Shown here one piece after another: positions 26,235 through 48,120 of a stretch of DNA of 48,596 nt. Each line of letters opens with the position of its first letter. The first letter of the stretch is position 1. The DNA is taken from assembly GCA_023252035.1 (NCBI GenBank), contig JAHEXQ010000001.1, positions 1 to 48,596 on the forward strand, read 5' to 3'. The notes beneath the pieces are model-generated. The model did not search any database. It saw nothing but the letters and a program-made list of their open reading frames with translations, and had not been told where the DNA came from. The translations under genes and the position numbers were made by a program. The DNA is from Actinomycetes bacterium (GTDB lineage: Bacteria; Actinomycetota; Geothermincolia; Geothermincolales; JAHEXQ01).

Positions 26235-26236
26235 AA

Positions 26237-27514: not shown

Positions 27515-27574
27515 CCGATGGCCTCCTGCATGATTCCTTTCATAGGCGAGCCTCCACAATACGCCGGATCGCTT

Positions 27575-28645: not shown

Positions 28646-28656
28646 TGAAAGCCGTT

Positions 28657-28691
28657 ATCCTTACTTTAAGTCCTGTCCCCAATGTAAGGAT
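28657..28691 (+). repeat. third copy of the 35-nt hairpin repeat
   Basis: ATCCTTACTTTAAGTCCTGTCCCCAATGTAAGGAT has an 8-bp stem and a 19-nt loop. It abuts the ahcY stop codon and differs by 1 nt from the copy at 8617-8651. Confidence 0.8.
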
Positions 28692-29948
<1,257 letters not shown>

Positions 29949-31959: not shown

Positions 31960-32082
31960 GCGAGATCCTTTCCGGCCTCTCCCAAAAATGCCCGCGCAAC
32001 GCGGAAGATTATAACATGGGCCTTTCCCCTGATATGCGGCCTACTCGCGCTCCCGGCCTGTGCGCGCGCGTCCCCGGGCGCG

Positions 32083-33099
32083 CTAAATGTACGTGTGGAA
32101 GTGCTCTTGGTAGTATTCCAGGGTCCTGGCGAGAGCCTCTCTCAGGGGAGTCTTCGGCTCCCATCCGATGACGGATTTTATGAGGCCATAATCCGCATAG
32201 AAATCCCCTATGTCTATGCGCTTGCGGTTCTTGGGGAACTCCTTGACGACGTACTCTCCCGACCCGTGCACCTCTATCATGAGTTTCGCCAGGTCCAGCA
32301 GGCTTATCACGCAGTCCCCGCCCAGGTTGAATATCCCGCCGTTGGAATGACCGCTGGCCGCCAGCCTCAGGAAGGCATCCACCACATCGTCCACGTAGCT
32401 GAAGTCCCGCACCTGGTGACCGTCCCAGACCTCGATAGGCCGGCCCTCCAGCAATTGCCTCACCCATATCCCCAGGAAGGTCTGGCGCGAGTCCTTGATG
32501 CGCATGCGCGGGCCGATGGTGTTGGTCAGGCGCAGAATGGCCGTGCGTATGCCGTAAACGGACTCGTACAGCAGGTGGTACCGCTCCCCCGCCAGCTTGT
32601 TGATGCCGTTCACGTCCACGGGGTTCAGCGGGTGCTTCTCGTCCACCGGGAGGTACTGGGGCTTTCCGTATATCTGGCGCGTGCTGGCGTAGAGGGTCTT
32701 GATATGGCGGTTGTATTTGCGGCAGGCTTCCAGGATATATAGTTGCGACTTCGCGTTTATCTCGATGTCGGTATAGGGGTCCTGCATGGAGTCCAGGTGG
32801 CTGGTCTGCCCGGCCAGGTTGAAGAGGTAGCTCTTCCCCTTGACCAGGTACTTCATGCTGTGCTCATCGCGCACGTCGGAGATGTTGACCTCCACCTCGC
32901 GCCTGATGGGCGCGATGTTGAAGAGATTGCCGCCGTACTCGGGGATCATGCTGTCCACCAGCAAAACATCGGCGCCGAGCTCCACTAACCGCCCGGCCAG
33001 GCTGGAGCCGATAAAGCCGAGGCCGCCCGTTATCAGGACGCTCTTGCCCTCGAACGCGGCGTTCAGGTCATCCATACTTCTCTCCGTCATGAACTCCAA
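32083..33099 (-). CDS. NAD-dependent epimerase/dehydratase (extended SDR)
   Basis: A Rossmann motif ITGGLGFIGS and the catalytic YxxxK context (INKLAGERY) are present. Confidence 0.85.
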   Translation of the reverse strand: MEFMTERSMDDLNAAFEGKSVLITGGLGFIGSSLAGRLVELGADVLLVDSMIPEYGGNLFNIAPIRREVEVNISDVRDEHSMKYLVKGKSYLFNLAGQTSHLDSMQDPYTDIEINAKSQLYILEACRKYNRHIKTLYASTRQIYGKPQYLPVDEKHPLNPVDVNGINKLAGERYHLLYESVYGIRTAILRLTNTIGPRMRIKDSRQTFLGIWVRQLLEGRPIEVWDGHQVRDFSYVDDVVDAFLRLAASGHSNGGIFNLGGDCVISLLDLAKLMIEVHGSGEYVVKEFPKNRKRIDIGDFYADYGLIKSVIGWEPKTPLREALARTLEYYQEHFHTYI

Positions 33100-33217
33100 G
33101 CCCGACCTCGCAACCAGCGCTTACTCGTCAATGCACGCCTCAGACTAACACGCTGGAAATAGCCTGTTCAACTGGTCTAAGCCGTGACTTCTGCCTAGCC
33201 TCTCCGCGTCCCTTTTG

Positions 33218-33226
33218 TGCTAGAAT
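33218..33226 (+). promoter_or_regulatory. extended -10 promoter (TGcTAGAAT) giving a near-leaderless PMM transcript
   Basis: TGCTAGAAT ends 9 nt before the GTG start at 33236, and no SD fits in between. Confidence 0.35.
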
Positions 33227-33235
33227 CATGAGACC

Positions 33236-34576
33236 GTGAAAAAAATCGATCCGGGAATCTTCAAGGCCTATGACGTAAGGGGCATCTACCCCGGCGAGCT
33301 GAACGAAGACGTGGCCTACGCCGTGGCCCGCGCCTTCTGTCTCTTCCTGGGAGAGGAGAAGCTGGTCGTGGGAAGGGACATGCGCCTCTCCTCGCCGGCC
33401 CTGTCCGAGGCCTTCATCCGGGGAGCGAACGACCAGGGTGTGGACGTCGTCGATATCGGGCTCTGCTCCACCGACATGATCTATTTCGCCTCGGGGTTAC
33501 TGGACCTGCCGGGCGCCATGTTCACCGCCTCGCATAATCCCAAGGACTACAACGGACTGAAGCTGTGCAAGCGCCAGGCGGCTCCCATCAGCGAGGACAC
33601 CGGCATCCGGGAGATAAAGGAGCTGGCCCTGGCGGGCAACTGGCCGGGCCCGGAAAAACGAGGCGGCGTGGAGGCCGTCGACATGCTACCCCAGTACGTC
33701 CAGCACGTGCTCACCTTCATCGACGTCTCGGCCGTGCAACCCCTGAGCATCGTGGTGGATGCGGGAAACGGCATGGCCGGCAAGCTGATACCGGCGGTCT
33801 TCGACCACCTGCCCTGCCGCATCATCCCCATGTTCTTCGAGCTGGACGGCTCCTTCCCGCACCACCAGCCGAGCCCCATCGAGCCCCAGAACATCAAGCT
33901 GGTGCAGGACAAGGTGCTTCGGGAAGGTGCTGACCTGGGCATGGCCTTCGACGGCGACGCCGACCGCGTGTTCCTGGTAGACGACCTGGGCGAGCCGGTG
34001 AGCGGGTCGCTGACCACCGCCATGGTGGCGAAGCGCATGCTCCAGAAGAACCCCGGCGCCAAGGTCATCTACAACCTCATCAATAGCTGGGTGGTGCCCG
34101 AGACCATCCGTGAGTACGGGGGCGAGCCCATCCGGGAACGGGTCGGGCACTCCTTCATCAAGCAGACCATGGCCGAGACGGGCGCCGTCTTCGCCGGCGA
34201 GCACTCCGGCCATTACTACTTCCGCGACAACTACCGCGCGGACAGCGGCCTCATCGCCTCGCTCATCGTGGTGGAACTGGTGTCGGTGGAGGAGAAACCG
34301 CTCTCCAAGATACTCGAGCCCTTCCGCAAGTACTACGCCACCGGCGAGATCAACTCCGAGGTGAGCGATATCCCCGCCAAGCTCGAGCAGATAGCGGTGC
34401 GCTACGGCGACGGCAAGGTGGACCGCACGGACGGCATCACCGTGGAGTACGAGGACTGGTGGTTCAACGTCCGCCCCTCCAACACCGAGCCGCTCATCCG
34501 CCTGAACCTGGAGGCCAAGACCCCCAGCCTCATGGCGGAGAAACGGGACGAGGTCCTGGCGGCCATCCGGTCGTAG
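33236..34576 (+). CDS. phosphomannomutase/phosphoglucomutase
   Basis: The active-site loop TASHNP, the metal loop FDGDADR and the sugar loop GEHSGH are present in a 446-aa protein. Confidence 0.93.
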   Translation: MKKIDPGIFKAYDVRGIYPGELNEDVAYAVARAFCLFLGEEKLVVGRDMRLSSPALSEAFIRGANDQGVDVVDIGLCSTDMIYFASGLLDLPGAMFTASHNPKDYNGLKLCKRQAAPISEDTGIREIKELALAGNWPGPEKRGGVEAVDMLPQYVQHVLTFIDVSAVQPLSIVVDAGNGMAGKLIPAVFDHLPCRIIPMFFELDGSFPHHQPSPIEPQNIKLVQDKVLREGADLGMAFDGDADRVFLVDDLGEPVSGSLTTAMVAKRMLQKNPGAKVIYNLINSWVVPETIREYGGEPIRERVGHSFIKQTMAETGAVFAGEHSGHYYFRDNYRADSGLIASLIVVELVSVEEKPLSKILEPFRKYYATGEINSEVSDIPAKLEQIAVRYGDGKVDRTDGITVEYEDWWFNVRPSNTEPLIRLNLEAKTPSLMAEKRDEVLAAIRS

Positions 34577-35157
34577 CTCAAGCTGAGCCGTTTGCCTGCG
34601 AAAAGCACTGCCCGCCTTCAATCACCCTGGTGATGGCATCTTGCGTGGCAGCGCGTTCCTCCGCGGGCAGGTGTGGCTCCAGGCGCGGGATGCCGCCGTT
34701 TCTGCCTTCCGGTCACGACACTGCGCCCCTTCAGGCAGCGCTATTTCCCAGGTCAGCGCGTGCCGCCGCCTCGGTAGCAGCATCCGCCAGCCGGCCCCGG
34801 CCAGCTGGATCTTGCCCGCGCCGAGCCCAATTGCACGCAGAAAAGGGCCCCGAGGCAGCCCCCAAAGGGAGAGAACTGCCGGGCTGCTCCTTATGAATGC
34901 TCCTGCTTACAAGCCTGTTGCACAAATGCCCCTTTGCATTATCCCTGCCCTAACAATGGCCTGTTTCGGCCTTCTAGTGGAGCACGGTATTCGTTTCAGG
35001 CGCCATATGCGCAATCCAATGGGGCCAATAATCCGTTGTATTGGTTCGCGCAACAGGCTTTTGCCATATTGTCATCGTGCGCCCCTATAATCTGCTTGGA
35101 TGCCGGGAGTGTATGACATCCAATATTCATGGAATCTGAGGGAAGGCTGAATACCTT

Positions 35158-38100
35158 ATGATCATCCTGCACGGCATGTGGACCCCGGGTGAATCCGGCG
35201 CAAGTGGGCGCTTTGTGATCTGGGGCGAGCTTCCGGTTCCGGACCTGATTCCGAGACGCCGGGGCCGGTTACCGAAAAAGTCTTTTGGGAGAGTACTTCC
35301 CCACCCCTTCGCGGCGGGACCTCCTAAGCTGAGAGGCGCGCTCAGGAACCTGGCGCAGGAGAGCGGCTGCGTGGAAAAAAGGATTCGCACCACCTCGACC
35401 CAAGATGCCATCCTCTTGCCCACCGAGAGGGGTGCCCCCTGCCCATCTACGGGGCTCCTCGATCGTGAATCACGCTTTCTGCAACAGGGGGCACGCAAAC
35501 AATCCCTGGTGGCGTGGATGGTTGATGGTTTGACGGTAGGAATGGCTGACCTCATGGGGCTGCTCTGCGCTTTGCCGGAAGTGACCGGAGATGATGGCAG
35601 GGACCTGATCATCGGGCACGACCTGCGCTTCTGGAGCCGCGCCTGCAAATTCGCCATGGGGCTTCTGGCGCGAGAGAGGCTGTTCCCCGGATTGACCGGG
35701 CTGCAGGATAGCCGGACCGGAGACGGCCAGCGAGCTCGTTCCCTCTGGAATCCCTGCCTGGATGACCCGGAAGACGCAGCGACGATGAGCTTACTGGTCC
35801 GGTCAATGCCCGCGGTCTGCCTCTGCGCCGTGCATATGAGCAGCGAAAGATACGAGCCTCCGATCGCCACCTCCCTGCTCGAGAACTTCCTGAGCGCAGC
35901 GGTGGATGCCTGCGTGCGAGCCTGGGTGCCCGACTACCTTGCCCGGAACCGCGGCGCCAGCAGGACGAAAAAGCCTGCCGCCCGCACGCCTTGGGAGAAG
36001 TGGGCCTTTTCGCTGCTCGCGCCCGATCCGTACATGGATTTGGAACAGAAGGAACTGGCGCTCCTGCGCAAAGGCATTGACGCATGGCTGGAGCCGCTTC
36101 ACCGCCGCAGAGGCGCTTTTCGTACCTGTTTCCGCTTGAGCACGCCGGAAGAGCCCGGCCTGGAGAAAGAAGGGGAGCCGGGCGAACAATGGCTGCCCCA
36201 GCGCGCAGATGCCCGGGGGACCGATGATGCGGAGCAGGAAGCCAGCTCTGGAAACGAGGGGTTTGGTGAAGCGGTTGATGCGCAGGCCGTCCCTGGGGAA
36301 GATCTCTGGGCCGTGGACTTCCTGCTTCAGGCCAAGGATGACCCCAGCCTGCTGGTCCCGGCGGAATCCATCTGGGCGGCAGGGTCGGACACCGCCGTTT
36401 TTCTGAACCATTCCCTGGATAGCCCCCAAGAGAAGCTCCTGGCGGATCTGGGCCTGGCCGTGCGCCTCTTCCCTCCCATTGCCACCGCGCTGGAGGAGGC
36501 CTGCCCCTCCGGCTTCACCCTGCAGACCGAAGCCGCCTATTCCTTCCTGAAAGATGGCGTCCCGCTCCTGAAGGAAAGCGGATTCGGGGTATTGGTGCCT
36601 CCCTGGTGGGAGAAGCGGCAAGCCCGGCCAAATCTGAGGCTGAAGCTGAAACCGGATGACGACGCTTTCGAATCCGAGGGGAAATGCGGCCTGGATGCGC
36701 TGGTGAACTACGATTGGGAACTCTCGCTGGGAGGAGAACTGCTCAGCCGCGACGATTTCATGAACTTGGTAGCCTACAAGGTTCCCCTGGTAAAAGTCAG
36801 GGGCCGCTGGATAGAGATCGGCCCGGAGCAGATCCGCGAGGCCCTCGATTTCTTCAAGCGGCGCGGGGAGTTGGGGCGGGTGACCTTAGCCGAAGCCCTG
36901 CGCATGGGCTTGGCCGGCGAGGACCTCAACGCTGGAACCCTCCCGGTGGAAGTGGTGATGCAGGGACGCCTGGCGGAGCTGGCCCGGAAGCTCGCCCAGG
37001 GCGAGAAGCTGGCGGAGGTTCCTTCTCCGGCAGGGTTTGTGGGAGAGTTGCGGCCTTATCAGGCGAGAGGGCTCTCCTGGCTGGATTTCCTTACCGGGAA
37101 AGGCCTGGGCGCCTGTCTGGCGGACGACATGGGCCTGGGAAAAACCATCCAATTGATCGCCCTGCTGCTGGCGAGAAAAGAGGTCCGGGGGGGCAAGGCG
37201 CGGCCGGTGCTGCTTTTCTGTCCCACTTCACTGGTGGGCAACTGGCGCAAGGAATTGGAGCGGTTCTCCCCCTCTCTCCAGGTACTGGTACACCATGGAC
37301 CGATGAGGCTTTCGGGCCAGGATTTCGCGCGCCAGGCCCGGAAACAGGACCTGGTGATCAGTTCGTATGCGCTCTCCCACCGGGACGAGGAGGAGTTGGC
37401 CAAGATACCCTGGGATGGGGTGGTTCTGGACGAGGCGCAGAACATCAAGAACCCCTCGGCCAAACAGACTCAGGCCATAAAGAGGTTAGCTCACGGATTC
37501 CGGGTAACGCTTACCGGCACCCCCGTGGAGAATCGCCTGTCCGAGCTGTGGTCGATCATGGATTTCCTGAACCCGGGTTTTTTGCAGAGTGCGGAAGCCT
37601 TCAAGACCAGCTTTGCCATACCCATAGAACGGTTCCGGGATCCCCGGGCCACCCAACATCTGACCCGCCTGACCAAGCCCTTCATATTGAGGAGATTGAA
37701 GACGGACAAGTCCATCATCAAGGACCTGCCCGACAAGCTGGAGATGAAGGTCTTTTGCAATCTCACGCGCGAGCAGGCCTCCCTCTACCAGGCTGTCGTG
37801 GAGGACATACTGGAAAAGATCGCTGCGGCCGAGGGAATGACTCGTCGGGGTTTGGTGCTCTCGGCCCTGACCAGGCTCAAGCAGGTCGCCAACCATCCCA
37901 CTCATTTTCTAGGGGACGGAAGCCCCCTGAAGGGCCGGTCGGGCAAATTGGCGCGCCTCACCGAGATGACGGAGGAGGTCCTTCAGGAGGGCGATCGCAT
38001 GCTTGTGTTCACACAATTCGCCGAGATGGGGGAACTCCTGCGGCGCCATCTTCAAGAGGTTTTCGCGGTAGAAGTGCTGTTCCTGCACGGGGGTGTGCCT

Positions 38101-38481
38101 GCCAAGGCCAGAGACCGGATGGTAGAGAGGTTTCAGGAAGAGGACGGCGGGCCACCCATCTTCGTACTCTCCCTTAAGGCGGGAGGCACGGGGCTCAACT
38201 TGACCCGGGCCAACCATGTCTTTCACTACGATCGCTGGTGGAACCCGGCCGTGGAGAACCAGGCCACCGATCGGGCTTTTCGTATCGGGCAGAGCAAGAA
38301 CGTCCAGGTCCATAAGTTCCTCTGCGTGGGAACCCTGGAAGAGCGCATCGACGAGATGATCGAGGAGAAGAAAGCGCTGGCAGAAAACGTCCTGGGCTCT
38401 GGGGAAGGGTGGCTTACCGAACTCTCTACCGACGAACTGAAGGACGTCCTCGGGTTGCGGCCGAGCGCGATCAGCAGATAA
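35158..38481 (+). CDS. SNF2-family helicase with long N-terminal SNF2-associated domain (HelZ/YwqA-like)
   Basis: The 1107-aa protein starts MIILHGMW. Helicase motifs are LADDMGLGKT, DEAQNIKN and TGTPVENR, with C-terminal LSLKAGGTGLNL and QATDRAFRIGQ. Confidence 0.92.
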   Translation: MIILHGMWTPGESGASGRFVIWGELPVPDLIPRRRGRLPKKSFGRVLPHPFAAGPPKLRGALRNLAQESGCVEKRIRTTSTQDAILLPTERGAPCPSTGLLDRESRFLQQGARKQSLVAWMVDGLTVGMADLMGLLCALPEVTGDDGRDLIIGHDLRFWSRACKFAMGLLARERLFPGLTGLQDSRTGDGQRARSLWNPCLDDPEDAATMSLLVRSMPAVCLCAVHMSSERYEPPIATSLLENFLSAAVDACVRAWVPDYLARNRGASRTKKPAARTPWEKWAFSLLAPDPYMDLEQKELALLRKGIDAWLEPLHRRRGAFRTCFRLSTPEEPGLEKEGEPGEQWLPQRADARGTDDAEQEASSGNEGFGEAVDAQAVPGEDLWAVDFLLQAKDDPSLLVPAESIWAAGSDTAVFLNHSLDSPQEKLLADLGLAVRLFPPIATALEEACPSGFTLQTEAAYSFLKDGVPLLKESGFGVLVPPWWEKRQARPNLRLKLKPDDDAFESEGKCGLDALVNYDWELSLGGELLSRDDFMNLVAYKVPLVKVRGRWIEIGPEQIREALDFFKRRGELGRVTLAEALRMGLAGEDLNAGTLPVEVVMQGRLAELARKLAQGEKLAEVPSPAGFVGELRPYQARGLSWLDFLTGKGLGACLADDMGLGKTIQLIALLLARKEVRGGKARPVLLFCPTSLVGNWRKELERFSPSLQVLVHHGPMRLSGQDFARQARKQDLVISSYALSHRDEEELAKIPWDGVVLDEAQNIKNPSAKQTQAIKRLAHGFRVTLTGTPVENRLSELWSIMDFLNPGFLQSAEAFKTSFAIPIERFRDPRATQHLTRLTKPFILRRLKTDKSIIKDLPDKLEMKVFCNLTREQASLYQAVVEDILEKIAAAEGMTRRGLVLSALTRLKQVANHPTHFLGDGSPLKGRSGKLARLTEMTEEVLQEGDRMLVFTQFAEMGELLRRHLQEVFAVEVLFLHGGVPAKARDRMVERFQEEDGGPPIFVLSLKAGGTGLNLTRANHVFHYDRWWNPAVENQATDRAFRIGQSKNVQVHKFLCVGTLEERIDEMIEEKKALAENVLGSGEGWLTELSTDELKDVLGLRPSAISR

Positions 38482-38495
38482 AGGCGAGGTGACGG

Positions 38496-39377
38496 ATGAG
38501 ATTCCATGATTTCGACAGGTACTGGCCAACTTCCCCCCGGCCCGTAGAGGGCGGTATCAGGCCTCGCGCCCAGAGAGGAAGGTTCGGCGAAAGCTGGTGG
38601 GCGGACCGTTTTATCCGGGTGCTGGAGTCCTTTGGGTGGAGCAACCGCCTGCAGCGCGGAAAGAACTATGCCAGAAAAGGGCAAGTGCTCGAATACCAGG
38701 TGGAGCCGGGCCGGGTAGAGGCCCTGGTGCAGGGAACTCGGGTTGAGCCCTACCGGGTGACCATAAAGGTTAAGCCCATCTCCCACAAAGGATGGGATGC
38801 CGTGGTACGAGCCATGGCCAAAAGGGCTGCCTACTCCGCCACCCTGCTCGCCGGGGAGATGCCTCAGGATATCGAGAGGGCCTTTACGGAAGCGGGGCAA
38901 ACCCTTTTCCCGGCCTCAGTGCGAGAAATGGGAATGAGCTGTTCCTGCCCGGATTGGGCCAACCCCTGCAAGCACACTGCGGCGGTCTACTATCTGCTGG
39001 CGGAGGAGTTCGACCGCGATCCCTTCCTCATCTTCCTTCTGAGGGGCAGGTCACGAGAGGATATCGTCAGGGCCCTGAGGAAACACCGCTCCGGCTACTC
39101 GGGCAACGGTCAGGATGATATGGCAAGCGAGCCCGCGGAGCAGAGGCAGCCCCAGGGGTTTCGCTTGCCCGATATCCACCTGGAGGGTTTTTGGCTACCC
39201 AACCCCCTGGCTGGCGAATTCCACCTCGCCATCTCCGCTCCTTCCGCCTCCCAATCGCTCTTAAAGCTGCTTAGCGATCCCCCCTTCGCGCACGAAAGAA
39301 ATCAACCCAAGCTCAGCCTGGAGGAGATTTACTCCGTCGTATCAGCGACAGCCCAAGATCTGGCCCGGCAGCCCTGA
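38496..39377 (+). CDS. SWIM zinc-finger protein (partner of the SNF2 helicase)
   Basis: The SWIM motif CSCPDWANPCKHTAAVYY is present. The N-terminal pattern WWADRFIRVLE...RGKNYARKGQV is typical of SNF2-adjacent SWIM proteins. It starts 14 nt after the helicase stop. Confidence 0.88.
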   Translation: MRFHDFDRYWPTSPRPVEGGIRPRAQRGRFGESWWADRFIRVLESFGWSNRLQRGKNYARKGQVLEYQVEPGRVEALVQGTRVEPYRVTIKVKPISHKGWDAVVRAMAKRAAYSATLLAGEMPQDIERAFTEAGQTLFPASVREMGMSCSCPDWANPCKHTAAVYYLLAEEFDRDPFLIFLLRGRSREDIVRALRKHRSGYSGNGQDDMASEPAEQRQPQGFRLPDIHLEGFWLPNPLAGEFHLAISAPSASQSLLKLLSDPPFAHERNQPKLSLEEIYSVVSATAQDLARQP

Positions 39378-39384
39378 ATCTCGC

Positions 39385-39610
39385 TGCTGCCTCAGTACGT
39401 CCAGCACGTGCTCACATTCATCGACGTCTCGGCCGTGCAGCCCCTGAGCATCGTGGTGGATGCGGGAAACGGCATGGCCGGCAAGTTGATACCGGCGGTC
39501 TTCGACCACCTGCCCTGCCGCATCGTCCCCATGTTCTTCGAGCTGGACGGCTCCTTCCCCCACCACCAGCCGAGCCCCATCGAGCCCCAGAACATCAAGC
39601 TGGTGCAGGA
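39385..39610 (+). pseudogene. internal fragment of a second PMM copy (equivalent to 33683-33909)
   Basis: The match is near-identical: 5 mismatches in ~217 nt, of which 4 are synonymous and 1 is Ile/Val. It begins 7 nt after the SWIM stop and ends abruptly at the IS21 stump. Confidence 0.9.
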
Positions 39611-40011
39611 GGTCCCCCACGGTCGCGGGAGATACGCGTACGGCCCCTGCGACCTGCCTTGCGGAAAGCCCGCCTCCGAGCTTGAGTCTCAATACTTCCC
39701 TGATCTTTCGCATGGACAACCTCCTATTTCCCATGACCTTGAATCCTCCTTTCTTGAAAAAGCGTACACAAGGAGGATTTTGGCCTTCTTGGGGTTGTCC
39801 GGCGAGGCCTTGAGCCCTCGGAGAGCCGGCGCGAACTGCTCGTATTGGCAGCAAGCCCGGGCTTTCCTCCAAATTCTCATGACGTCTGAACACCGATTAT
39901 CACGAAGGGCCGAAAACCGTTCAGTCATCGTGAGAATCGGCGTTCAGTTATGTTGAGAATGAGTGTCCAGTAATGATGAGATTGCGTGTTCAGTTATCGT
40001 GAGCGCGCACA
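39611..40011 (-). mobile_element. IS21-family remnant: left end with four terminal repeats plus the first ~41 codons of istA
   Basis: The istA N-terminus MGNRRLSMRKIREVLRLKLGGGLSARQVAGAVRVSPATVGD is present (ATG 39734, GGAGG upstream). Four ~21-nt direct repeats of GTTCAGTnATnnTGAGAAT type are at 39918-39937, 39941-39960, 39963-39983 and 39985-40005. The terminus ...CA is at 40011. Confidence 0.7.
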
Positions 40012-40137
40012 GACTGGTGGTTCAACGTCCGGCCCTCCAACACCGAGCCGCTCATCCGCCTGAACCTGGAGGCCAAGAGCCCCAGGCTGATGGCCGAGAA
40101 GCGGGACGAGGTCCTGGCGGCCATCCGGTCCGGTTGA
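40012..40137 (+). pseudogene. 3'-terminal fragment of the second PMM copy (equivalent to 34452-34576)
   Basis: There are 6 mismatches in ~118 nt, mostly synonymous. It has its own different terminus (..IRSG-TGA). It is separated from fragment 1 by the IS21 stump. Confidence 0.88.
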
Positions 40138-40138
40138 G

Positions 40139-40569
40139 TCAATCGGCCTTTAGGAACTCAATGAACCTGCGGTGGAACTCCTCGATATCCCCGATGTCTT
40201 TTGTAATAATTTCCCAGATCTGTTCTTCGTCAACTTCCCAGTAGATATGCACCAATCTATTTCTGAACTTGACCATGTCTTCCAACCGATTCGCAAAACT
40301 CTTTTCAAAAGCTCCAGCTTCGCCGAGGACGTAAAACGCGTCGGCATAATTCGTGGGGACCCTCAATCGATTTCTGCAATCACATGGTTGCACATATCCA
40401 CCGCCGCCTCGATGGATACGATCAACAAGTATTTGGCGGAGTTCAGCTTAGTACGGTCTCCGATGAACTCATCTCGAGACAGAGATGAATACTCCCTAAG
40501 TTGTTCGACAGAAGTCAATAGTTCCGAGGAGAGCGTGGCTATTTTGTGCCTCTCAAACTTCAAGACCAA
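40139..40569 (-). pseudogene. hepT: HepT (DUF86) RNase toxin, frameshifted copy
   Basis: Track ORFs 40363..40569 and 40139..40393 together align along the intact paralogue 41927..42358. An extra A in the AAA run at 40371-40373 breaks the frame. The RNRLVHIY motif is retained. Confidence 0.85.
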
Positions 40570-40969
40570 TTGCCTCCCTCCTGTATCGCCTTCCGAAATA
40601 TTCGAAGTCGGAATATTCCCTCATGGTTAGGCTTTCGAAGTCACACCTCAGGGACTCATCCCTGGAAAATAGCAGAAAGCCCTGTGCGACCACGTTGAAC
40701 TTGAAGGGAATCGGAGCGCGGTTTATTGCCCTTACGTCGGTGGCTATTCCCGTGATGTCCTCTAGCTGTGTCTCCAGGCCCAGCTCCTAATGCAAGACAT
40801 CTCGCCTGTTCCCATCGCTTATGTAAATACCCAGGTCTATATCCCTGAAGGGCCCCTCCAGGAATGAGCCGTGGAGATATGCGAAGACTATGTCCTCGCG
40901 CGATTCGAGGACTATCCTAATCTTGTCAATCATCTCTTCGCGTTCTTTTTGAGGAAGTTCCTTTATCAT
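40553..40969 (-). pseudogene. mntA: MntA nucleotidyltransferase antitoxin, copy with in-frame TAG
   Basis: MIKELPQKEREEMIDKI...GSFLEGPFRDIDLGIY...DVLH-TAG(40789-40787)-ELGLETQLEDITGIATDVRAIN... The paralogue has Tyr (VLDYELGLE) at the stop position. Confidence 0.85.
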
Positions 40970-41077
40970 GTCGCTCTTTCTTTATTCCTCCGTCCGGCTA
41001 TTGACAATATTATATAAGTTACCAAGGACGAAGGGCAGCATGCCGTCGACGGTCGCTTTCCTAGAAATAGGATTAGA

Positions 41078-41106
41078 TTGACCCTATATTACCTTGATAT
41101 TATAAT
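41078..41106 (+). promoter_or_regulatory. sigma-70-type promoter for vapBC
   Basis: TTGACC (41078-41083), a 17-nt spacer and TATAAT (41101-41106) lie 37 nt upstream of the vapB ATG, in an A+T-rich divergent intergenic region. Confidence 0.5.
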
Positions 41107-41142
41107 TAACTTTGTTGTGGTACTTAATAGGGGTTCTTAATT

Positions 41143-41433
41143 ATGGCAGATACGAAAAGCAGAGCAAAAGCTCACATCGTCATGCCCGAAGAGTTGCTCC
41201 GGGAGATAGACCGTTTTGTCGGCAAGAGAAAACGAAGCCAGTTCGTAGCGGCAGCGGCACGCAAAGAGCTGCAGAGACTCCGGTTGGAGCACGCACTCGC
41301 TGAAGCGGCCGGGGCGTGGAAGGATGAAGAACATCCCGAATTGGCCAAGGTGGGAACCGAGCGGTGGGTGCGGGACCTGCGAACCCTGGATGAGAGCCGC
41401 ACCGCAAGCAAGAAGAAACCAGGGAGGTCGTAA
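41143..41433 (+). CDS. vapB: ribbon-helix-helix (CopG/VapB-type) antitoxin
   Basis: The N-terminal RHH pattern is KAHIVMPEELLREIDRFVGKRKRSQFVAAAARKEL. The gene abuts the PIN gene. Confidence 0.8.
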   Translation: MADTKSRAKAHIVMPEELLREIDRFVGKRKRSQFVAAAARKELQRLRLEHALAEAAGAWKDEEHPELAKVGTERWVRDLRTLDESRTASKKKPGRS

Positions 41434-41844
41434 GTGAGCCCCGATAAGAGTATGCGATCCAGAGGCGCGTTTCTTCTCGACAGCACGGTTATCATCGACT
41501 ACCTGAGGGGCAGGGCGCAAACGGTCGAAAGGGTCAAGATGCTCCATGCCGGCGGGGCTTCTCTAGGCTGCTGCCCCATCAACCTCATCGAGGTATTTGC
41601 AGGTATGAGGGATGAAGAAGCGGCGCGCACGATCGAATTTCTGGACAGTCTCGAATTTTACGAACTAAACAAAGAAGCGGCCAAGACAGCGGGGGGATCG
41701 CTGACGCAGTTTCGCGTGGAGGGAATCACCCTGTCGCTCTCGGACGTTTCCATCGCGGGCATAGCGATTGTAAACGATCTGGTTCTGCTCACCGATAATG
41801 CCAAGCATTATCCGCAGGCGGAGTTGCGGGTAGAGACTATTTAG
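41434..41844 (+). CDS. vapC: PIN-domain toxin VapC
   Basis: FLLDSTVIIDYL (first acidic residue), EVFAG and LLTDNAKHY are present. The GTG start directly follows the vapB stop. Confidence 0.82.
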   Translation: MSPDKSMRSRGAFLLDSTVIIDYLRGRAQTVERVKMLHAGGASLGCCPINLIEVFAGMRDEEAARTIEFLDSLEFYELNKEAAKTAGGSLTQFRVEGITLSLSDVSIAGIAIVNDLVLLTDNAKHYPQAELRVETI

Positions 41845-41926
41845 CGGCAAATGCCGGTCTTCTTCCGGTCCTAACCGTGCTGACTTCAACCTGCGGCCGA
41901 GCCTTAGACCGAAGTACGCGTGCAGT

Positions 41927-42358
41927 TCAATCGGATTTCAAAAAGTCAAGAAACGTTTGATGGAACTCTTCAATATCGCCGATATTGGCGGTGATAATCT
42001 CCCAGATTTGCGCGTCGTTCACTTCCCAGTAGATGTGCACCAACCTGTTTCTGAACTTGACCATCGTCGTAAGCCGATTCACAAAGTCCCTCTCAAGAGC
42101 ACCTGCTTCGCCCAGGACCATGAAGGAATCTGCATAATCAGAGGGCGCTCTCATACGATTCTGAGAAATCACATGGTTGCACATGTCTATCGCCGCCTCG
42201 ATGGACACGACTAAGAAGTATTTGGCGGCGCCTAGCTTGAATGGATCACCCAGGAACGCTTCTCTGGTCAGAGACGAGAGCTCTCTCAGCCGCTCGACCG
42301 AAGTTAGGAGTTCTGAAGAGAGTGCGGTTATTTTATCCTCGTCAAACTTCAAGGCCAA
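41927..42358 (-). CDS. hepT: HepT (DUF86) RNase toxin, intact copy
   Basis: The 143-aa protein has RNRLVHIYWEV (Rx4HxY). It overlaps mntA by 17 nt. Confidence 0.88.
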   Translation of the reverse strand: MALKFDEDKITALSSELLTSVERLRELSSLTREAFLGDPFKLGAAKYFLVVSIEAAIDMCNHVISQNRMRAPSDYADSFMVLGEAGALERDFVNRLTTMVKFRNRLVHIYWEVNDAQIWEIITANIGDIEEFHQTFLDFLKSD

Positions 42359-42755
42359 GCGCCTCCTTCATGTATCGCCTTCGGAAATGCTTGAAGTCAT
42401 GGTATTCCACAAAAGTCAGGCTTTCAAAGTCGCTCCTTAAGGATTCGTCCCTGGAAAAGAGCAGAAGGCCCTTCGCGACCACGTTGAACCGAAAGGGAAG
42501 CGGAGCGCTGTTTAGTGCCCTCACATCGGTTGGTATTCCAGTGATCTTCTCGAGCCGGTTCTCCAGGCCAAGTTCATAATCCAAAACACCTCGCCCTTCC
42601 CCAGCGCGAATATAAATGCCCAAATCTATATCCCTGAAGGGCCCGGCAAGGAAAGATCCATGGAGGTACGCAAACGCTATGCGCTCATCTGATTCCAGGG
42701 CGTCCTTGATCCTGTCAACCATTTCTTCGCGCTCTTTTTCTGAGATCTCACGCAT
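42342..42755 (-). CDS. mntA: MntA nucleotidyltransferase antitoxin, intact copy
   Basis: The protein reads MREISEKEREEMVDRI..., with the GSFLAGPFRDIDLGIY GSX10DXD NTase motif. The start is taken at 42755; the ORF track extends to 42839. Confidence 0.85.
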   Translation of the reverse strand: MREISEKEREEMVDRIKDALESDERIAFAYLHGSFLAGPFRDIDLGIYIRAGEGRGVLDYELGLENRLEKITGIPTDVRALNSAPLPFRFNVVAKGLLLFSRDESLRSDFESLTFVEYHDFKHFRRRYMKEALGLEV

Positions 42756-42938
42756 TATGACGAACCTCACTCGCACTTCAAAGATCTTTACTTTGTTGTT
42801 GGTAAATCGTCCATCTGGATGACTGCTGCTCTCCCGCACGCCCCTCGTGTTTACTTTGAATATTATACAGGGTGCCAGGACACAGCGAGGAAAGAACGGT
42901 CCGAAATTTATTGGGCTGCGCCCTTTATCGTGCCGCAG

Positions 42939-42967
42939 AAAGGCAACCTCTGAGCGAGGTTGCCTTT
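42939..42967. terminator. duplicate of the thiolase terminator hairpin
   Basis: AAAGGCAACCTC-tgagc-GAGGTTGCCTTT has the same stem as 44565-44593, with a different loop. Confidence 0.5.
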
Positions 42968-43037
42968 GCGGTAATTCAGTGGTTGAGGAAGGGCGGCCAC
43001 AGCGGCCACCCTCTTTTTCTTAAGTCTCGCTAACCGG

Positions 43038-43232
43038 CTATGCCTTCTCCAGGATTACGCTGCCGCCCTGGCCGCCGCCGCCGCACATGGTAGCGAGGCC
43101 GTACTTGCCGTCCTTCTCCTGCAGGATGCGGGCCAGGGTCCCCGTGATGCGGGGGCCCGAGGCGGAAAGCGGGTGGCCGATAGCCACGGCGCCTCCGTGC
43201 ACGTTCACCTTTTCCACCGGGATGTTGAACTC
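43038..43232 (-). pseudogene. orphan 3' fragment (last 64 codons) of a diverged thiolase allele
   Basis: It aligns without indels to 44615-44809, with 17 mismatches in 195 nt. The frame stays open ([67 protein letters not shown]), and only 5 residues differ. Confidence 0.88.
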
Positions 43233-44506
43233 TAGGAGAGCAGTATTCCAAGCGGTATGGCCCAGAGTCTATCCCCCAGCTTTAACGGCTCCGTGCCATT
43301 GTAAGCGAGAATCGCCGCCTTGCAATGCGGTGTGACCGATAAGAATGCCCGGAGTCCGCGCAAGTCTCTCGGCGACCAACTACTGGCGGCTTTAATCTCG
43401 ACCGCGAGAACCTCGCTCCTGCTTTCTATTACCAGATCGACCTCTTCTCCCGACTGTGTTCGCCAGTACAGAAGCTCGGCGCCGAAATCATGTGCCGATA
43501 GAATTCCCAGAAGATTTTGCGCTACGTAGGTCTCATACAGGTGACCCCGCAAGGGCGATTCGCGCAAGTCGTGTATGGCCGACAGATAGCGGGCGAGACC
43601 TGAATCGCAGACGATGAGCTTTGGCGCCTTCTTGATTCTGGTGGCCCTATTTTTCAAGAACGGCTGAAGCCTGCGAATCAGAAAGGAATCTTCAATCCAA
43701 CTGAGGTAGCGGTGCGTGGTCTTGACCGGTAAGCCTGCATCACGTGAAAGGCTGTTGATATTCAGAACTTGTCCCGTGCGCATCGCAGCAAGCCTGAGCA
43801 GATCCCTCAAGCCTATGGTGTTCTCGACGCGGGCAATCAAGCGGATATCCCTCTCAACGTATTGCTGCTCATACCCTTTGAACCATACCTCGGAACTGCT
43901 GGGATGTAAGAGGACTGGCGGCAGCCCACCCGCCATCACCTCGCTGTCCCTCAAAGGGGCAGCTGAAGTAACCGGCAACGTCGGTCTAGCCATGAAACTG
44001 ACGAGGAAGGGCGGCTTCTGTGTTGCTGCCGATATCTCCCTCCGGGTCATAGGGAGCAGGTTCAAGTATATAGCCCTCCCTGCAAGGCTCTCGGCCAGCT
44101 CTCCCCGCAGGTCAAAACTGGAGGAGCCGGAAAGCAGGAAACGACCGAGACGACGATCTGTGTCCACAGAGCGCTTGGCGGCAAGGAAAAGCTCGGGGGC
44201 CCGTTGAGCTTCATCAATGGTTAGAATTTCTCGGCCCTCCCACAAGACAGTGGGATCCTCCCGTGCAGCTTTTAGCGTAGCCACGTCATCGAGACTCAGG
44301 TAGGGTCTGCCCTGCAGCCCGGGATCCTTCACCAGCATGGTCGTCTTCCCCGTTTGCCTCATTCCCGTTACAGCTACGACCGGCATGTGTTGAAGCATCT
44401 CGGAGATGGTTCCCGCTAACTCGCGATGGATGTACTTCTGTGTACTCAATTCGGCATATATCCTTTTGCGTCTCCTTATGACATATTTTACGTCATCTAC
44501 TGACAT
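43232..44506 (-). CDS. AAA+ ATPase with DUF4143-type C-terminal domain
   Basis: Walker A is [11 protein letters not shown] and Walker B is ILTIDEAQ. The C-terminal half is typical of AAA_14/DUF4143 proteins. The stop codon sits exactly on the junction with the thiolase fragment. Confidence 0.8.
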
Positions 44507-44564
44507 ATTTTACACACTGAACATTACGACCTCAAGACCGCCATGGCGATCCCGGAGCAATAAC

Positions 44565-44593
44565 AAAGGCAACCTCGGGACGAGGTTGCCTTT
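44565..44593 (-). terminator. terminator hairpin downstream of thiolase
   Basis: AAAGGCAACCTC-gggac-GAGGTTGCCTTT lies 22 nt after the stop codon. The A/T-flanked stem could act in both directions. Confidence 0.5.
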
Positions 44594-44614
44594 GCAGAAA
44601 TTGTTCGAAGGGTA

Positions 44615-45808
44615 TTATGCCTTCTCCAGGATTACGGTGCCGCCCTGGCCGCCGCCGCCGCACATGGTGGCCAGGCCGTACTTGCCGCCCTTCTCCTGCA
44701 GGATGCGGGCGAGCGTTCCCGTGATGCGGGGCCCCGAGGCGGCCAGGGGGTGCCCGATAGCCACGGCTCCGCCGTGCACGTTCACCTTTTCCGCCGGGAC
44801 GTTGAACTCCTTCATGGCGTAGAGCGACACCACGGCGAAGGCCTCGTTTATCTCCCAGAAGTCTATCTCGCCGGCCGCGAGACCCGCCTTATCCAGCGCC
44901 ATCTTGGACGAGGGTACCGGGCCTGCTCCCATGATGGTGGGATCGACGCCCGCCCAGCCCATGCCGACCACCTTGGCCAGCGGCTTCACGCCCAGGGCCT
45001 TGGCCTTCTCCGCACTGACGATGAGCAGCGCCACCGTTCCGGCGTTCAGGGGCGAGGAGTTGCCCGCGGTGATGACGCCGTCTCCCTTGAAGGGCGGCTG
45101 CAGTTCGGCCATGCCCTCCAGGGTGCTGTCGCCGCGCACTGAAAGGTCCTTGTCGATGACCTTCTTGGCCCCATCCACCTCGACCTCGACCGGCACGATC
45201 TCGTCCTTGAAGTAACCGTCCTCCTGCGCCTTCGCCGCCTTCAGATGGCTGCCCAGCGAGAACTCGTCCATCTCCTGGCGGGTGATGCCGGACATGGCCG
45301 CCAGCTTCTCGGCGGTGAGGCCCATGTTCAGGGCGGTCATGATGTCTATCTCCTTGAAGCGCTCCTCGGTGAAGAACTTCGGGTTGATCATCATGAGGTC
45401 CGTATTGATGGACGGGTCCAGGGGCAGATGGGTCATATGCTCCATGCCGCAGCAGATGACCGCGTCCGAGTAGTCCAGCATGATCTCCATGGATCCCTGC
45501 TGCACCGCCGACATGCCCGAGATGCACTGGCGGTCCGCGCCGGCGGAGGCCACGCTGAAGGGCAGTCCCGCGAGCAGCGCCACCGTCTTCCCGCCCAGTA
45601 GCCACTGCTCCTTCATCTGCATGGCGCAGCCGATGATGAGATCGGAGATCTCCTCGCCCTTCAGCTTGTTGCGCTCGAGGAGCATGTTGATGAGACGGGC
45701 GAGCGCCTCATCCATCCTCAGGTTGTTGAAGACGTCCCGCTCCGGCTGCCGTGGCCGCGACCGCGAGAAAGGGGTCCTCAGGATATCGACGATTACCGGT
45801 TCAGCCAT
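44615..45808 (-). CDS. thiolase (acetyl-CoA C-acyltransferase family)
   Basis: The active-site Cys context is RQCISGMSAV. The C-terminal motifs are [17 protein letters not shown] and [10 protein letters not shown]. The ATG at 45808 (MAEPVIV) lies 6 nt after GGAGG. Confidence 0.92.
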   Translation of the reverse strand: MAEPVIVDILRTPFSRSRPRQPERDVFNNLRMDEALARLINMLLERNKLKGEEISDLIIGCAMQMKEQWLLGGKTVALLAGLPFSVASAGADRQCISGMSAVQQGSMEIMLDYSDAVICCGMEHMTHLPLDPSINTDLMMINPKFFTEERFKEIDIMTALNMGLTAEKLAAMSGITRQEMDEFSLGSHLKAAKAQEDGYFKDEIVPVEVEVDGAKKVIDKDLSVRGDSTLEGMAELQPPFKGDGVITAGNSSPLNAGTVALLIVSAEKAKALGVKPLAKVVGMGWAGVDPTIMGAGPVPSSKMALDKAGLAAGEIDFWEINEAFAVVSLYAMKEFNVPAEKVNVHGGAVAIGHPLAASGPRITGTLARILQEKGGKYGLATMCGGGGQGGTVILEKA

Positions 45809-45967
45809 TCTTGACCTCCTAAAGCTCCGATGCATTTACCTAAAAACAATCGCTTGCGTTCCAAAGGGTCAAATCCCTTTGGAACATCGATGATCTCCCC
45901 CCTAAAAAGTGACCTCAGGTAAACGAGAGGGTCAGATGCTTTCGTTTACCCACACAACAGCAGCTCT

Positions 45968-46936
45968 CTACAGCTTCCCCCTGTCCACACGGTCCCGCCA
46001 GTAGTCGAGCAGGTCCTGAAGCGTCTTCTCCAGCGGTATCTCCGTCTTCCAGCCGGTCTGCGCATGGAACTTGGTGTTGTCTGACAGGAGTATCAACACG
46101 TCGGAGGGGCGCATGCGCTCCGGCACCGGCATCACTTCGATGCGGTCGTCGGTCATGGAGAGCAGCATGTCCAGCATTTCCTGGATGGTGACGGCCGAAC
46201 CGGAACCGATGTTATAGACATCGCCCGGCTCGCCCTTCTCCAGCGACAACCAGTAAGCTCGGACCACGTCGCGCGCGTCCGAAAAGTCACGCCTCGCCTC
46301 CAGGTTGCCCACCTCGATGACCGGCTCCTTCAAGCCCTTCTCTATCATGGCTATCTGGCGGGAGAAGTCGCTGGTGACGAAGACCTGCCCGCGTCGCGGT
46401 CCGGTGTGGTTAAAGGCCCGGGTGCGTACGGCGAAGATGCCGTAACTCTGGTTGTACTGCCAGGCCAGGAAATCCTGGGCCACCTTGCTCACCGCGTAGG
46501 GCGACAGCGGCCGCAGGGGATTATCCTCGCCGATGGGCACCTCGTCCTCGAGGACGAGCCCGTACTCTTCGCTGGAGCCGGCCACCTGTATGCGTGTTTC
46601 CAGGCCCAGGTCGCGGATGGCTTCCAGCAGGTTCAACTCCGCCAGGATATTGGTGGTGAGGGTCTCCGAGGGCGCGCTCCAGGAAGCGGGAACGTAGCTC
46701 TGGGCCGCCAGGTGGAAGATGTAATCGGGCCGCACCTGCTCCAGGCACTTGCGCGTGGCAGAGGGATCCCTGAGATCGCAATCGATGAGGTCGATATCGC
46801 CAAGGATACCGTTGATATTGTCCATGCGGGACCGCCAGCGAACCGTCCCGAAGACCTCGACGTCGCCGCGCGCCAGCGCATACTCCGCCAGATGGCTTCC
46901 CACGAATCCCGTTATCCCGGTTATCAATACGCGCAA
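45968..46936 (-). CDS. GDP-mannose 4,6-dehydratase / GDP-6-deoxy-mannose reductase-like SDR
   Basis: ITGITGFVGSHL and SPYAVSKVAQD (YxxxK) are present. RAFNHTGPRRG and the GNLEARRDFSDARD pattern are typical of the Gmd/Rmd group. Confidence 0.8.
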   Translation of the reverse strand: MRVLITGITGFVGSHLAEYALARGDVEVFGTVRWRSRMDNINGILGDIDLIDCDLRDPSATRKCLEQVRPDYIFHLAAQSYVPASWSAPSETLTTNILAELNLLEAIRDLGLETRIQVAGSSEEYGLVLEDEVPIGEDNPLRPLSPYAVSKVAQDFLAWQYNQSYGIFAVRTRAFNHTGPRRGQVFVTSDFSRQIAMIEKGLKEPVIEVGNLEARRDFSDARDVVRAYWLSLEKGEPGDVYNIGSGSAVTIQEMLDMLLSMTDDRIEVMPVPERMRPSDVLILLSDNTKFHAQTGWKTEIPLEKTLQDLLDYWRDRVDRGKL

Positions 46937-46986
46937 TGTGTACCTCCTCGTATCCAGTCAGCCTATGCCGGCCAGGTCTCCCTATT

Positions 46987-48099
46987 CTAGAACTTAACCT
47001 TGCCGGAGCCTATGACCGTATCCGGCCAGACTTTGATGCCCCGTTTCAGATCGTTGTCGTCCTCCACTATCAGTCCCTCGCCCAGCACCGCTGCATCTGC
47101 GACGTGGCAGCGCTTTCCCAGCGTTACGTTGCGCGATAGAAGGCTGGAGCGCACCGCGCTGTCCTCCCCTATCACGCAGCCCTCGTGCAGGACCGAGCCC
47201 TCTATGTGGGCGCCGTGCATGATGCGGCATCCGTCCGCCAGGACCGTATGGCCCATGACGTTGGCATCCGCGGCGATGTGGCAGTCGCGCCCGATCACGG
47301 TGGGCCCGAAGACCATAGCGCTCTCCTCGATGACTGTTCCCTCTCCCACCCACACGGCGGGCTTTATCTCCTCGCCCTTGAAATCGTAGGACAGGCGGCG
47401 GTCGAGGATGTCCAGATGCGCCTGCAGATATTTTTCGGGGGTCCCGATATCCAGCCAGTAAGAGGGAGACGGGAAGCCATAGACGGGCTTGCCCTCCCCC
47501 AGGAGCCTGGGGAAGAGCTGCCGCTCGAAGGAGTGCGGCACGCCCTCCGGCACGAGTTCCAGGACCTCGGGCTCCAGCACATAAGTGCCTGCGTTGATGA
47601 GGTCGGTGATCACCTGGTCCCAACTGGGCTTCTCCAGGAACTCCGTCACGCGCCCCGCGCGGTCCAGGGGCACCAGCCCGTAGGCCGTGGGATCCTCCAC
47701 CCGCGTGAGGGTGAGGGTAGCGACGGCTTTCTTCGCCCGGTGAAACTCGATCAGGTGCTCCAGGTTGAGGTCGGTGAGGATATCCCCGTTAAAGACCAGG
47801 AAAGTCCCCTTGATGTAGCGCTCCACGTTCTTCACGGCCCCGCAGGTGTCCAGGGGGTGTTCCTCGGTCACGTAGATGAGGCGGATGCCCATCCCCGAGC
47901 CGTCCCCGAAATGGGACTCGAAGATGGAGGCGAGATAGCTGGTGGAGAGGATCACCTCTTCCACGCCCGACCGCTTGAGGTGATTAAGCATGTACTCCAG
48001 GAAGGGGCCGTTCATCAGAGGCAGCATGGGCTTGGGGGTGGTCACCGTGAGTGGACGCAGCCTGGTTCCCTGCCCGCCGACCAACATCACCGCCTGCAT
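46987..48099 (-). CDS. nucleotidyltransferase with LbH domain (mannose-1-phosphate guanylyltransferase-like)
   Basis: MQAVMLVGGQGTRLRPLTVTTPKPMLP is present, with C-terminal hexapeptide repeats. It is a paralogue of 26369..27514. Confidence 0.85.
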   Translation of the reverse strand: MQAVMLVGGQGTRLRPLTVTTPKPMLPLMNGPFLEYMLNHLKRSGVEEVILSTSYLASIFESHFGDGSGMGIRLIYVTEEHPLDTCGAVKNVERYIKGTFLVFNGDILTDLNLEHLIEFHRAKKAVATLTLTRVEDPTAYGLVPLDRAGRVTEFLEKPSWDQVITDLINAGTYVLEPEVLELVPEGVPHSFERQLFPRLLGEGKPVYGFPSPSYWLDIGTPEKYLQAHLDILDRRLSYDFKGEEIKPAVWVGEGTVIEESAMVFGPTVIGRDCHIAADANVMGHTVLADGCRIMHGAHIEGSVLHEGCVIGEDSAVRSSLLSRNVTLGKRCHVADAAVLGEGLIVEDDNDLKRGIKVWPDTVIGSGKVKF

Positions 48100-48120
48100 G
48101 CCGTCCTCCTTTGAAAAACT

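Follow-up and report, generated by a model that had tools for sequence, protein, structure and literature searches.

Islands of defence genes at hotspots between core genes are known in E. coli, Pseudomonas and Vibrio; many of them occupy fixed core-gene positions without a mobility gene, and the route by which their content is exchanged is unsettled. Other integrase-less islands are the cis-mobilisable elements (CIMEs), for example that at fda in Streptococcus thermophilus, which lie where a housekeeping gene has its 3' end and are flanked by attachment (att) repeats. Here we describe an island lying between two housekeeping genes, one for phosphomannomutase/phosphoglucomutase (PMM) and one for an acetyl-CoA C-acetyltransferase (thiolase), in which each gene is intact and is followed by cargo and then by a truncated second copy of its own 3' part. 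The stretch of DNA analysed, referred to throughout as the window, is 48.6 kb of contig JAHEXQ010000001.1 from an uncultured actinobacterium and was taken from a metagenome assembly.

The closest described arrangement is that of e14 and phage 21 at the icd gene of E. coli, where the element brings an alternative 3' end: the gene becomes an intact hybrid, its former end stays on at the far side as a truncated pseudogene whose differences are mostly synonymous, and the two recombine upon excision (PMC13626634; Hill et al. 1989 cited there). The present locus likewise combines what appears to be an intact hybrid gene with a displaced 3' end, as at icd/icdC. It differs in that e14 is a prophage with its own integrase and excisionase whereas no recombinase gene was found here, and in that one of the inserted units amounts to just one gene of 1.6 kb, a repeat unit measures about 890 nucleotides (nt) and both flanks of the hotspot are affected. 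In the C-terminal displacement seen at rhs loci and at effector-immunity loci of type VI secretion systems, incoming DNA is anchored in the conserved part of the gene and delivers a new 3' end together with new genes, so that the old end is orphaned downstream; the mechanism put forward is homology-facilitated illegitimate recombination (PMC5361080; Jackson et al. 2009 cited there). An old 3' end shifted downstream as an orphan is seen here also, but the rhs and type VI tips encode different toxins, whereas the tips here are alleles of one housekeeping function and the payload lies wholly downstream of them. Duplications can also be produced by transformation, in a RecA-dependent manner that needs no dedicated recombinase (PMC3784515). 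As in Campbell-type insertion-duplications and merodiploids, direct repeats of a homologous segment flank the insert; those cases are mainly laboratory constructs or large duplications bounded by insertion sequences (IS), whereas here small defence cargo would have entered by this route in nature, possibly more than once. The repeats of CIMEs are short att sites for the integrase of a related element acting in trans, unlike the diverged repeats of 0.2-0.9 kb found here. Finally, as at the defence hotspots, the cargo between the same core genes varies, and it includes toxin-antitoxin (TA) modules, an SNF2 helicase and a candidate from the PADLOC collection; such hotspots are usually described without footprints of entry, whereas here displaced core-gene ends mark the boundaries. 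The locus varies known processes in an unusual way: it has allelic repeats as long as 0.2-0.9 kb, a boundary that is met again in a relative, effects on both flanks and no recombinase gene that could be found.

The island reads, in order, PMM, a 581-nt spacer, an SNF2 helicase with DUF3670, a SWIM protein, a truncated PMM copy (PMM'), the stump of an IS21-family element, a HepT/MNT module, VapBC, a second HepT/MNT module, terminator hairpins, a truncated thiolase copy (thiolase'), an AAA_14-DUF4143 ATPase, a terminator and thiolase. This is the gene order given in the initial annotation of the window, and it matches the gene calls and Pfam domains. Intact PMM (33236-34576, plus strand, 446 amino acids) carries four of the four PGM_PMM Pfam domains and its best NCBIfam match is NF007088; intact thiolase (44615-45835, minus strand) has Pfam Thiolase_N and Thiolase_C and matches NCBIfam NF005033 above the cut-off. 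Both cargo blocks are co-directional with their own target gene, each running from the intact gene through the cargo to the 5'-truncated copy. Thus, on the minus strand, thiolase (45835-44615) is followed by one hairpin, AAA_14-DUF4143 (44506-43232), thiolase' (43232-43038) and two hairpins. On both flanks, then, the target gene's 3' part makes up the direct repeats; one copy completes the reading frame of the target and the second is truncated.

In the resident genes the repeat covers PMM from 33684 onwards and the last 194 nt of thiolase. Repeat search and direct alignment gave 7/226 differences between 33684-33909 and 39385-39610 and 6/119 between 34454-34572 and 40012-40130 for PMM; the thiolase pair, 44616-44809 and 43039-43232, differs at 16/194 positions, or at 17/195 if the stop codon is included (TAA against TAG). 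All three pairs are free of indels and keep open frames, and their BLAST E-values of 1e-48 to 1e-106 exclude chance as their origin. The same three duplicates had been reported by the initial annotation with counts that are essentially right; its figure of 5/217 for PMM is the first of these alignments begun 9 nt further on. It had also described nearly all the differences as synonymous or conservative; in the alignments the change is synonymous in 22 of the 30 changed codons, where about 25% would be expected if changes were random (P = 4e-8), with 11 synonymous and 3 conservative changes in PMM and 11 synonymous and 5 non-synonymous in thiolase. The differences between the repeats are allelic and were shaped by purifying selection. 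PMM' part 1 (39385-39610, plus strand), which is 5'-truncated and corresponds to codons 150-225, has 6 synonymous changes and one of I to V; part 2 (40012-40137, plus strand) comprises the last 41 codons, one extra Gly codon and TGA. Thiolase' (43038-43232, minus strand) consists of the last 64 codons and the stop of a second allele, in an open frame with no decay.

Close relatives were obtained through protein searches with thiolase and PMM, after which their contigs were fetched. They show that within this actinobacterial lineage the convergent gap between PMM and thiolase forms a variable hotspot, because the same core genes flank differing cargo in four of them (L165, L166, L167 and L168). 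L166 and L168 have an M48 peptidase and a protein of 165-167 amino acids between thiolase and PMM, L168 has a methyltransferase in addition, and L167 has an IS there; no duplicates are present in these three. L165 is 91% identical to the window in thiolase and 91.9% in the TA cluster at the nucleotide level, and its order is thiolase, two hairpins, the same TA cluster and a PMM 3' end whose protein finishes in SG before the stop, with a junction identical to that between PMM' and the TA cluster in the window. In all of them PMM and thiolase are convergent with variable cargo alone between them, and in L165 the TA cluster extends from thiolase to the end of PMM, as had been predicted. The suggestion that the two genes were once neighbours holds as regards their convergence, but direct adjacency was never found in close relatives. 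The inner segment of the window, from PMM' through the TA cluster to thiolase', appears from this comparison to be a contiguous native haplotype.

Two remnants are found in L165 between the intact thiolase and the TA cluster. One is 98 nt of the AAA leader and first codons, with 76% identity to window 44557-44460; the other, which follows it, is 74 nt of a truncated thiolase copy with 84% identity, starting 2-3 nt from the boundary of thiolase' in the window. The AAA/thiolase' structure is therefore not unique to the window genome, a decayed version being present at the same boundary in L165. Over the first 79 columns of the alignment, 12 private states, an indel among them, were counted for the L165 remnant and 1 for thiolase' of the window. 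The window copy is far less decayed than that of L165, and one ancient event does not explain both the fresh copy and the decayed one.

The truncated copies in the window are young and show no decay. The private changes of thiolase' are all synonymous (5/5, P = 0.0012) and its peptide equals the consensus of relatives; those of PMM' are synonymous also (2/2, both in part 1), so that 7/7 private changes in the truncated copies are synonymous (P = 6e-5). PMM' part 2 and L165 disagree at just 4/119 sites though the adjoining TA cluster is 8% diverged, and the thiolase genes of the window and L165 are about 9% different, the changed codons being synonymous in 79 cases and non-synonymous in 21. Had two pseudogenes persisted since the split between the window and L165, they should have diverged far more; the truncated copies therefore belonged to working genes until recently. 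It had been proposed that the duplicates evolved as functional genes in other lineages and then arrived here. The synonymous bias is consistent with a history as functional genes, but the direction has probably to be turned round: most likely the truncated copies represent native 3' ends that were displaced, and it is the intact genes whose 3' parts came with the cargo. This we infer because the SG ending and the PMM'-TA junction are shared with L165 and because thiolase' retains states like those of the outgroups (L166, L168) and two downstream hairpins that are seen in L165-L168. Furthermore, a derived block of 5 sites is common to the resident thiolase tail and the tail of the intact gene of L165, and the resident tail has 3 private non-synonymous changes and is without hairpin 1. 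The reversed direction is still what the integration model of the initial annotation implies.

The topology of both flanks is the expected outcome of a crossover within the 3' part of a gene. Our preferred account, held with moderate confidence, is that a homology-anchored displacement of the gene's 3' end, by Campbell-type, one-ended or ordinary homologous recombination, added cargo at both flanks. The older state was probably PMM with the SG ending, the TA cluster and thiolase, as in L165, to which two cargo blocks would have been added, one per flank: the spacer with SNF2 and SWIM, and AAA_14-DUF4143. Each block would have been carried on DNA that also bore the 3' part of the flanking housekeeping gene; recombination in that gene would have fused the resident 5' part with the 3' part that came in, keeping the gene intact, and the genome's own 3' end would have been pushed downstream as a 5'-truncated orphan. 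This could have happened through a single crossover with a circle (Campbell-type), through a homologous crossover in the gene combined with an illegitimate joint downstream (homology-facilitated illegitimate recombination), or through an ordinary double-crossover transfer of a ready-made unit of gene, cargo and truncated copy (X-cargo-X') with the right exchange inside X'. The circular donor and Campbell crossover envisaged earlier fit the topology, but a circle is not required, since the one-ended and double-crossover routes give the same product. For an illegitimate joint, a microhomology of 1-3 nt at most would be possible between AAA and thiolase'. An IS21-family element would later have entered PMM', followed by deletion of most of the IS and of 544 nt of PMM'.

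Pairing by RecA has a threshold of about 25-30 nt of identity or more; the longest identical blocks, 31 nt in thiolase and 50 and 46 nt in PMM, should be long enough for it. The X-cargo-X' product would have homology on both sides to any genome without the cargo, so that RecA-type recombination alone could excise it or pass it on, either by pop-out and Campbell re-entry or by a double crossover with the right-hand exchange inside X'. Either route would recreate the same boundary and leave behind the undecayed 3' end of the new host, which could give a fresh orphan here and a decayed orphan in L165 at the same nucleotide. The locus retains footprints of entry, with undecayed displaced 3' ends on both flanks and an older, decayed one in a relative at the same nucleotide; if the pattern is general, integrase-free homologous recombination in flanking core genes would be enough to gain, lose and transfer defence genes, and orphan core-gene ends could be used as a searchable marker of cargo entry. 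A bolder proposal, which we put forward as speculative, is that integrase-free "homology-arm cassettes" may spread defence genes at hotspots flanked by core genes, homologous recombination excising and re-inserting them and each insertion regenerating the boundary and orphaning the end of a host gene. Were this true, the AAA/thiolase' boundary with its fresh and decayed orphans would be the footprint of repeated moves and the stop-codon-tight ends of the cargo would hint at a further precise step.

Several observations weigh against displacement by homologous recombination. The 92% identity of the thiolase repeat is low for efficient homologous recombination, and the crossover points are not placeable, as no clean mosaic emerges from the informative sites; when PMM and thiolase were set against relatives in sliding comparisons, no clear recombination breakpoint was seen at the repeat boundaries. 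Neither an empty site nor a circular form was observed, the L165 contig stops 153 nt into PMM, short of the place where an SNF2-SWIM block would lie, and a recombinase coded elsewhere in the genome would be outside the reach of a 48.6-kb window. Further, the cargo ends 0 nt (AAA) and 7 nt (SWIM) after native stop codons. Random illegitimate joints would not lead one to expect such tight ends, which hint at a mechanism of greater precision. It is possible that an integrase acted in trans, in the manner of e14/icdC or of a CIME. In a fully site-specific alternative the blocks would belong to islands aimed at the 3' parts of PMM and thiolase, either as cis-mobilisable elements or as remnants without an integrase, with the replacement 3' end carried in attP and the tyrosine or serine recombinase lost or located elsewhere. 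It is unlikely in our judgement; in its favour, the anatomy matches that of e14/icd/icdC, with an intact hybrid gene, a displaced 3' pseudogene and mostly synonymous differences (PMC13626634), the thiolase boundary is identical in two lineages of very different decay, the cargo ends are very precise, and a 9-nt identical stretch (GAGTTCAAC) is located at the thiolase boundary. At the PMM boundary, by contrast, only 4 nt precede the first mismatch and there are 2 mismatches in the first 9 nt; the PMM repeat unit of about 890 nt overall is far beyond the usual att homology (the thiolase unit also takes in about 100 nt of downstream hairpins), and the AAA unit, at 1577 nt, has room for the AAA gene alone. 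No recombinase domain was found in the island gene calls or in the larger reading frames of the remaining window, which argues against an integrase-borne island and bears out the initial annotation over that range. The AAA_14-DUF4143 protein could instead move its own 1.6-kb unit into the thiolase 3' end, as that unit, whose end is precise and whose boundary recurs, contains no other gene, and DUF4143 is listed among the PD-(D/E)XK superfamily of nuclease-fold families (PMC3424549). We consider this highly improbable: five other loci with homologues (about 37-69% identity) show no flanking duplications, and the family is listed as a defence candidate and adjoins other defence genes.

The duplications could have arisen in place as cargo entered, the copies being identical at first, with core-genome recombination later swapping the 3' allele of the intact gene; the differences are indeed allelic and biased to synonymous changes, and there are private changes in the resident thiolase tail, with a deletion of 55 nt downstream of it. 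One extra event per flank is then needed, however, and the shared boundary with unequal decay in L165 is left unexplained, as is the derived block that the resident tail has in common with L165's intact, AAA-linked copy, so that we regard this origin as improbable. Also improbable is a single nested insertion, in which a linear fragment from a strain with the TA cluster (PMM from codon 150 to its end, TA, thiolase tail) was end-joined into a 7-nt gap between PMM-spacer-SNF2-SWIM and AAA-thiolase, whose stops nearly abut. One event would account for both junctions at stop codons, and the inner segment is one contiguous haplotype of the L165 type. But the AAA/thiolase' junction of L165 is decayed, yet its PMM end is at 4/119 from PMM'; a single event cannot be both old (the thiolase side of L165) and young (both sides in the window), and two independent captures at an identical nucleotide are implausible.

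It might also be asked whether strain variants in the metagenome were stitched into a single contig, as the source is a metagenome assembly, the truncated copies resemble live alleles from co-occurring strains and an assembly at ENA is broken inside SNF2. Contigs of that assembly (ERZ27279942; L001, L082) match window 23897-36645 at 99.98% and 36661-48528 at 100%, and the break falls between them within the SNF2 gene. A Logan contig (L083, SRR14366796) matches 43062-44667 at 100%; it holds the AAA gene with both differing thiolase copies and spans both AAA junctions, so that three assemblies are concordant. The junctions SWIM/PMM', PMM'/IS21 and AAA/thiolase' are located in unique sequence, which gives a graph assembler no means of passing from one strain to another, and L165, from the separate JGI sample 3300007061, has a remnant of the same structure. 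A chimera is unlikely on these grounds, and the probability that we would assign to it is very small.

On the PMM flank, the spacer had been counted as part of the SNF2-SWIM block, which does not hold for its first 380 nt or so: the non-coding stretch 34577-34954 is 92% identical to the DNA 3' of PMM in L169 and hence belongs to this PMM haplotype, and only the region upstream of SNF2 (34955-35157, plus strand) is not common to L169. L169, which is 93.7% identical to the window in nucleotides, shares PMM and this first part of the spacer and then has IS debris to the end of its contig. The debris (L169 3031-3827) contains the N-terminal 73 codons of a putative IS1634-like transposase, as judged by eye, cut by an IS21-like left-end stump with 78 istA-like codons on the minus strand; it resembles the stump in the window in kind and in orientation but comes from another IS21 subfamily. 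The 581-nt spacer showed no translated similarity to the cargo of the other hotspot haplotypes. The SNF2-family helicase (35158-38481, plus strand) has the Pfam domains SNF2-rel_dom, DUF3670 and Helicase_C; its best NCBIfam match, under the cut-off, is the SCO1167/SCO6262 helicase family, and its helicase core resembles ZorD and DpdE. The SWIM zinc-finger protein (38496-39377, plus strand; Pfam SWIM) is full length, as homologues of about 290-320 amino acids align up to 1-10 residues from its C-terminus, and PMM' begins 7 nt past its stop codon. SWIM variants of 90% identity or more (P0524, P0525, P0529) occur on contigs of 4524, 4527 and 5156 nt, which would fit a unit bounded by the spacer and PMM'.

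PMM' had been described as split by an IS21 stump. The stump does interrupt it, but more than a split is involved, as 544 nt of PMM' (equivalent to 33910-34453) are absent with the stump in their place. The stump (39611-40011, 401 nt, minus strand) is the left end of an IS21-family element, with four terminal repeats ending in 5'-TG and istA codons 1-34, translated as MRKIREVLRLK onwards; a complete istA, istB and the right inverted repeat are absent. By tblastn the istA stub has 71% identity to annotated istA N-termini in more than 1000 plasmid records. PMM' ends in SG-TGA, intact PMM in S-TAG, and the TA cluster starts directly after PMM'. Among about 160 other fetched PMM loci no partial PMM duplicates were seen near PMM, and scans with PMM of GTDB representative genomes and JGI metagenome contigs returned nothing above 73% amino acid identity and no synteny with thiolase. 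In a distant actinobacterial metagenome-assembled genome (L033, 10001-12780), PMM has as its convergent immediate neighbour a thiolase of only 35% identity, possibly by coincidence.

On the thiolase flank, the AAA_14-DUF4143 ATPase (43232-44506, minus strand; Pfam AAA_14, DUF4143) is full length: it ends in LLS before the stop, as do all its homologues. The last base of its TAG stop is the first base of the homology to thiolase'. It matches PADLOC PDC-S01 over residues 23-423 (profile 9-418 of 422, E = 1e-110), so that it may be put down as a candidate single-gene defence system, PDC-S01 being itself a candidate family only. The reading frame from the ATG at 44506 is probably 19 codons overlong and the likely true start gives 405 amino acids (43232-44449); homologues begin around residue 20-24, and there is a promoter-like TTGAGG-17-TAAAAT with its end at 44507. 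The leader (window 44450-44560) contains a repeated motif, AAAATATGTCA, and is the part that survives in L165 (11358-11455). Distant homologues on plasmids (L171, L172, L173) adjoin Cas3 with type I-C cas genes, a restriction endonuclease with a HEPN/nucleotidyltransferase gene, and an HNH endonuclease with DRT3, neighbours that would fit a role of AAA_14-DUF4143 in defence islands. At the five other loci compared (L170, 69% identity, and four plasmid homologues of about 37-42%) no flanking target duplications were found, the sole repeat being a CRISPR array, and a scan of viral contigs with the AAA alignment gave no relatives. An AAA variant (P0517) is encoded on an ENA contig of 2836 nt.

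Terminator copies had been noted on both sides of the AAA gene, and strong folds are predicted at both sites. Downstream of thiolase' two hairpins (42939-43037, minus strand; -49.7 kcal/mol, z = -4.6) were defined with the help of the alignment. After the intact thiolase hairpin 2 (44566-44596, minus strand; -25.2 kcal/mol, z = -6.7) is present and hairpin 1 is missing. The two-hairpin arrangement, which is found also after the intact thiolase of L165, appears to be ancestral. The DNA directly downstream of the resident thiolase (44597-44614) lacks the 55 nt of hairpin 1, retained in L165-L168 and at the truncated copy, and the resident tail (44615-44809) has 3 private non-synonymous changes against 1 synonymous. 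A 59-amino-acid truncated-thiolase reading frame of another allele (PLAAS instead of PLSAS) is present in another ENA sample (P0522), on a contig of 1099 nt.

The TA cluster between the truncated copies contains two HepT/MNT modules that are 75-77% identical to each other. Module 1 (40139-40969, minus strand; Pfam HepT-like on two reading frames) is inactivated, its HepT being frameshifted and its MNT having a stop at codon 61; module 1 of L165 (13457-14288) is dead also, through another lesion, with an in-frame stop at codon 48 of HepT and an intact MNT. Module 2 (41927-42839, minus strand; Pfam HepT-like, Polbeta, NTP_transf_2) is intact. Between the modules, on the plus strand (41143-41844), lie a VapB-like antitoxin (41143-41433) and a PIN-domain VapC toxin (41434-41844; Pfam PIN), in the same order as in L165. 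Exact-protein look-ups with the resident thiolase (the 406-amino-acid reading frame) and with MNT2 gave no match, probably because the gene caller chose other start codons.

Rfam and tRNA scans gave no match inside the island. A direct repeat of 76% identity (46200-46369 and 48350-48519) is unrelated to the island and represents two paralogous NAD-dependent epimerase/dehydratase genes. The rest of the window is of housekeeping character, with tmRNA, SmpB, FtsEX, transketolase and SecA; in this part the scans placed the tmRNA (tag peptide ANTELALAA) at 7610-7957, a raiA RNA motif at 22138-22355 and three tRNA genes (His, Pro, Gly) within 42-2276.

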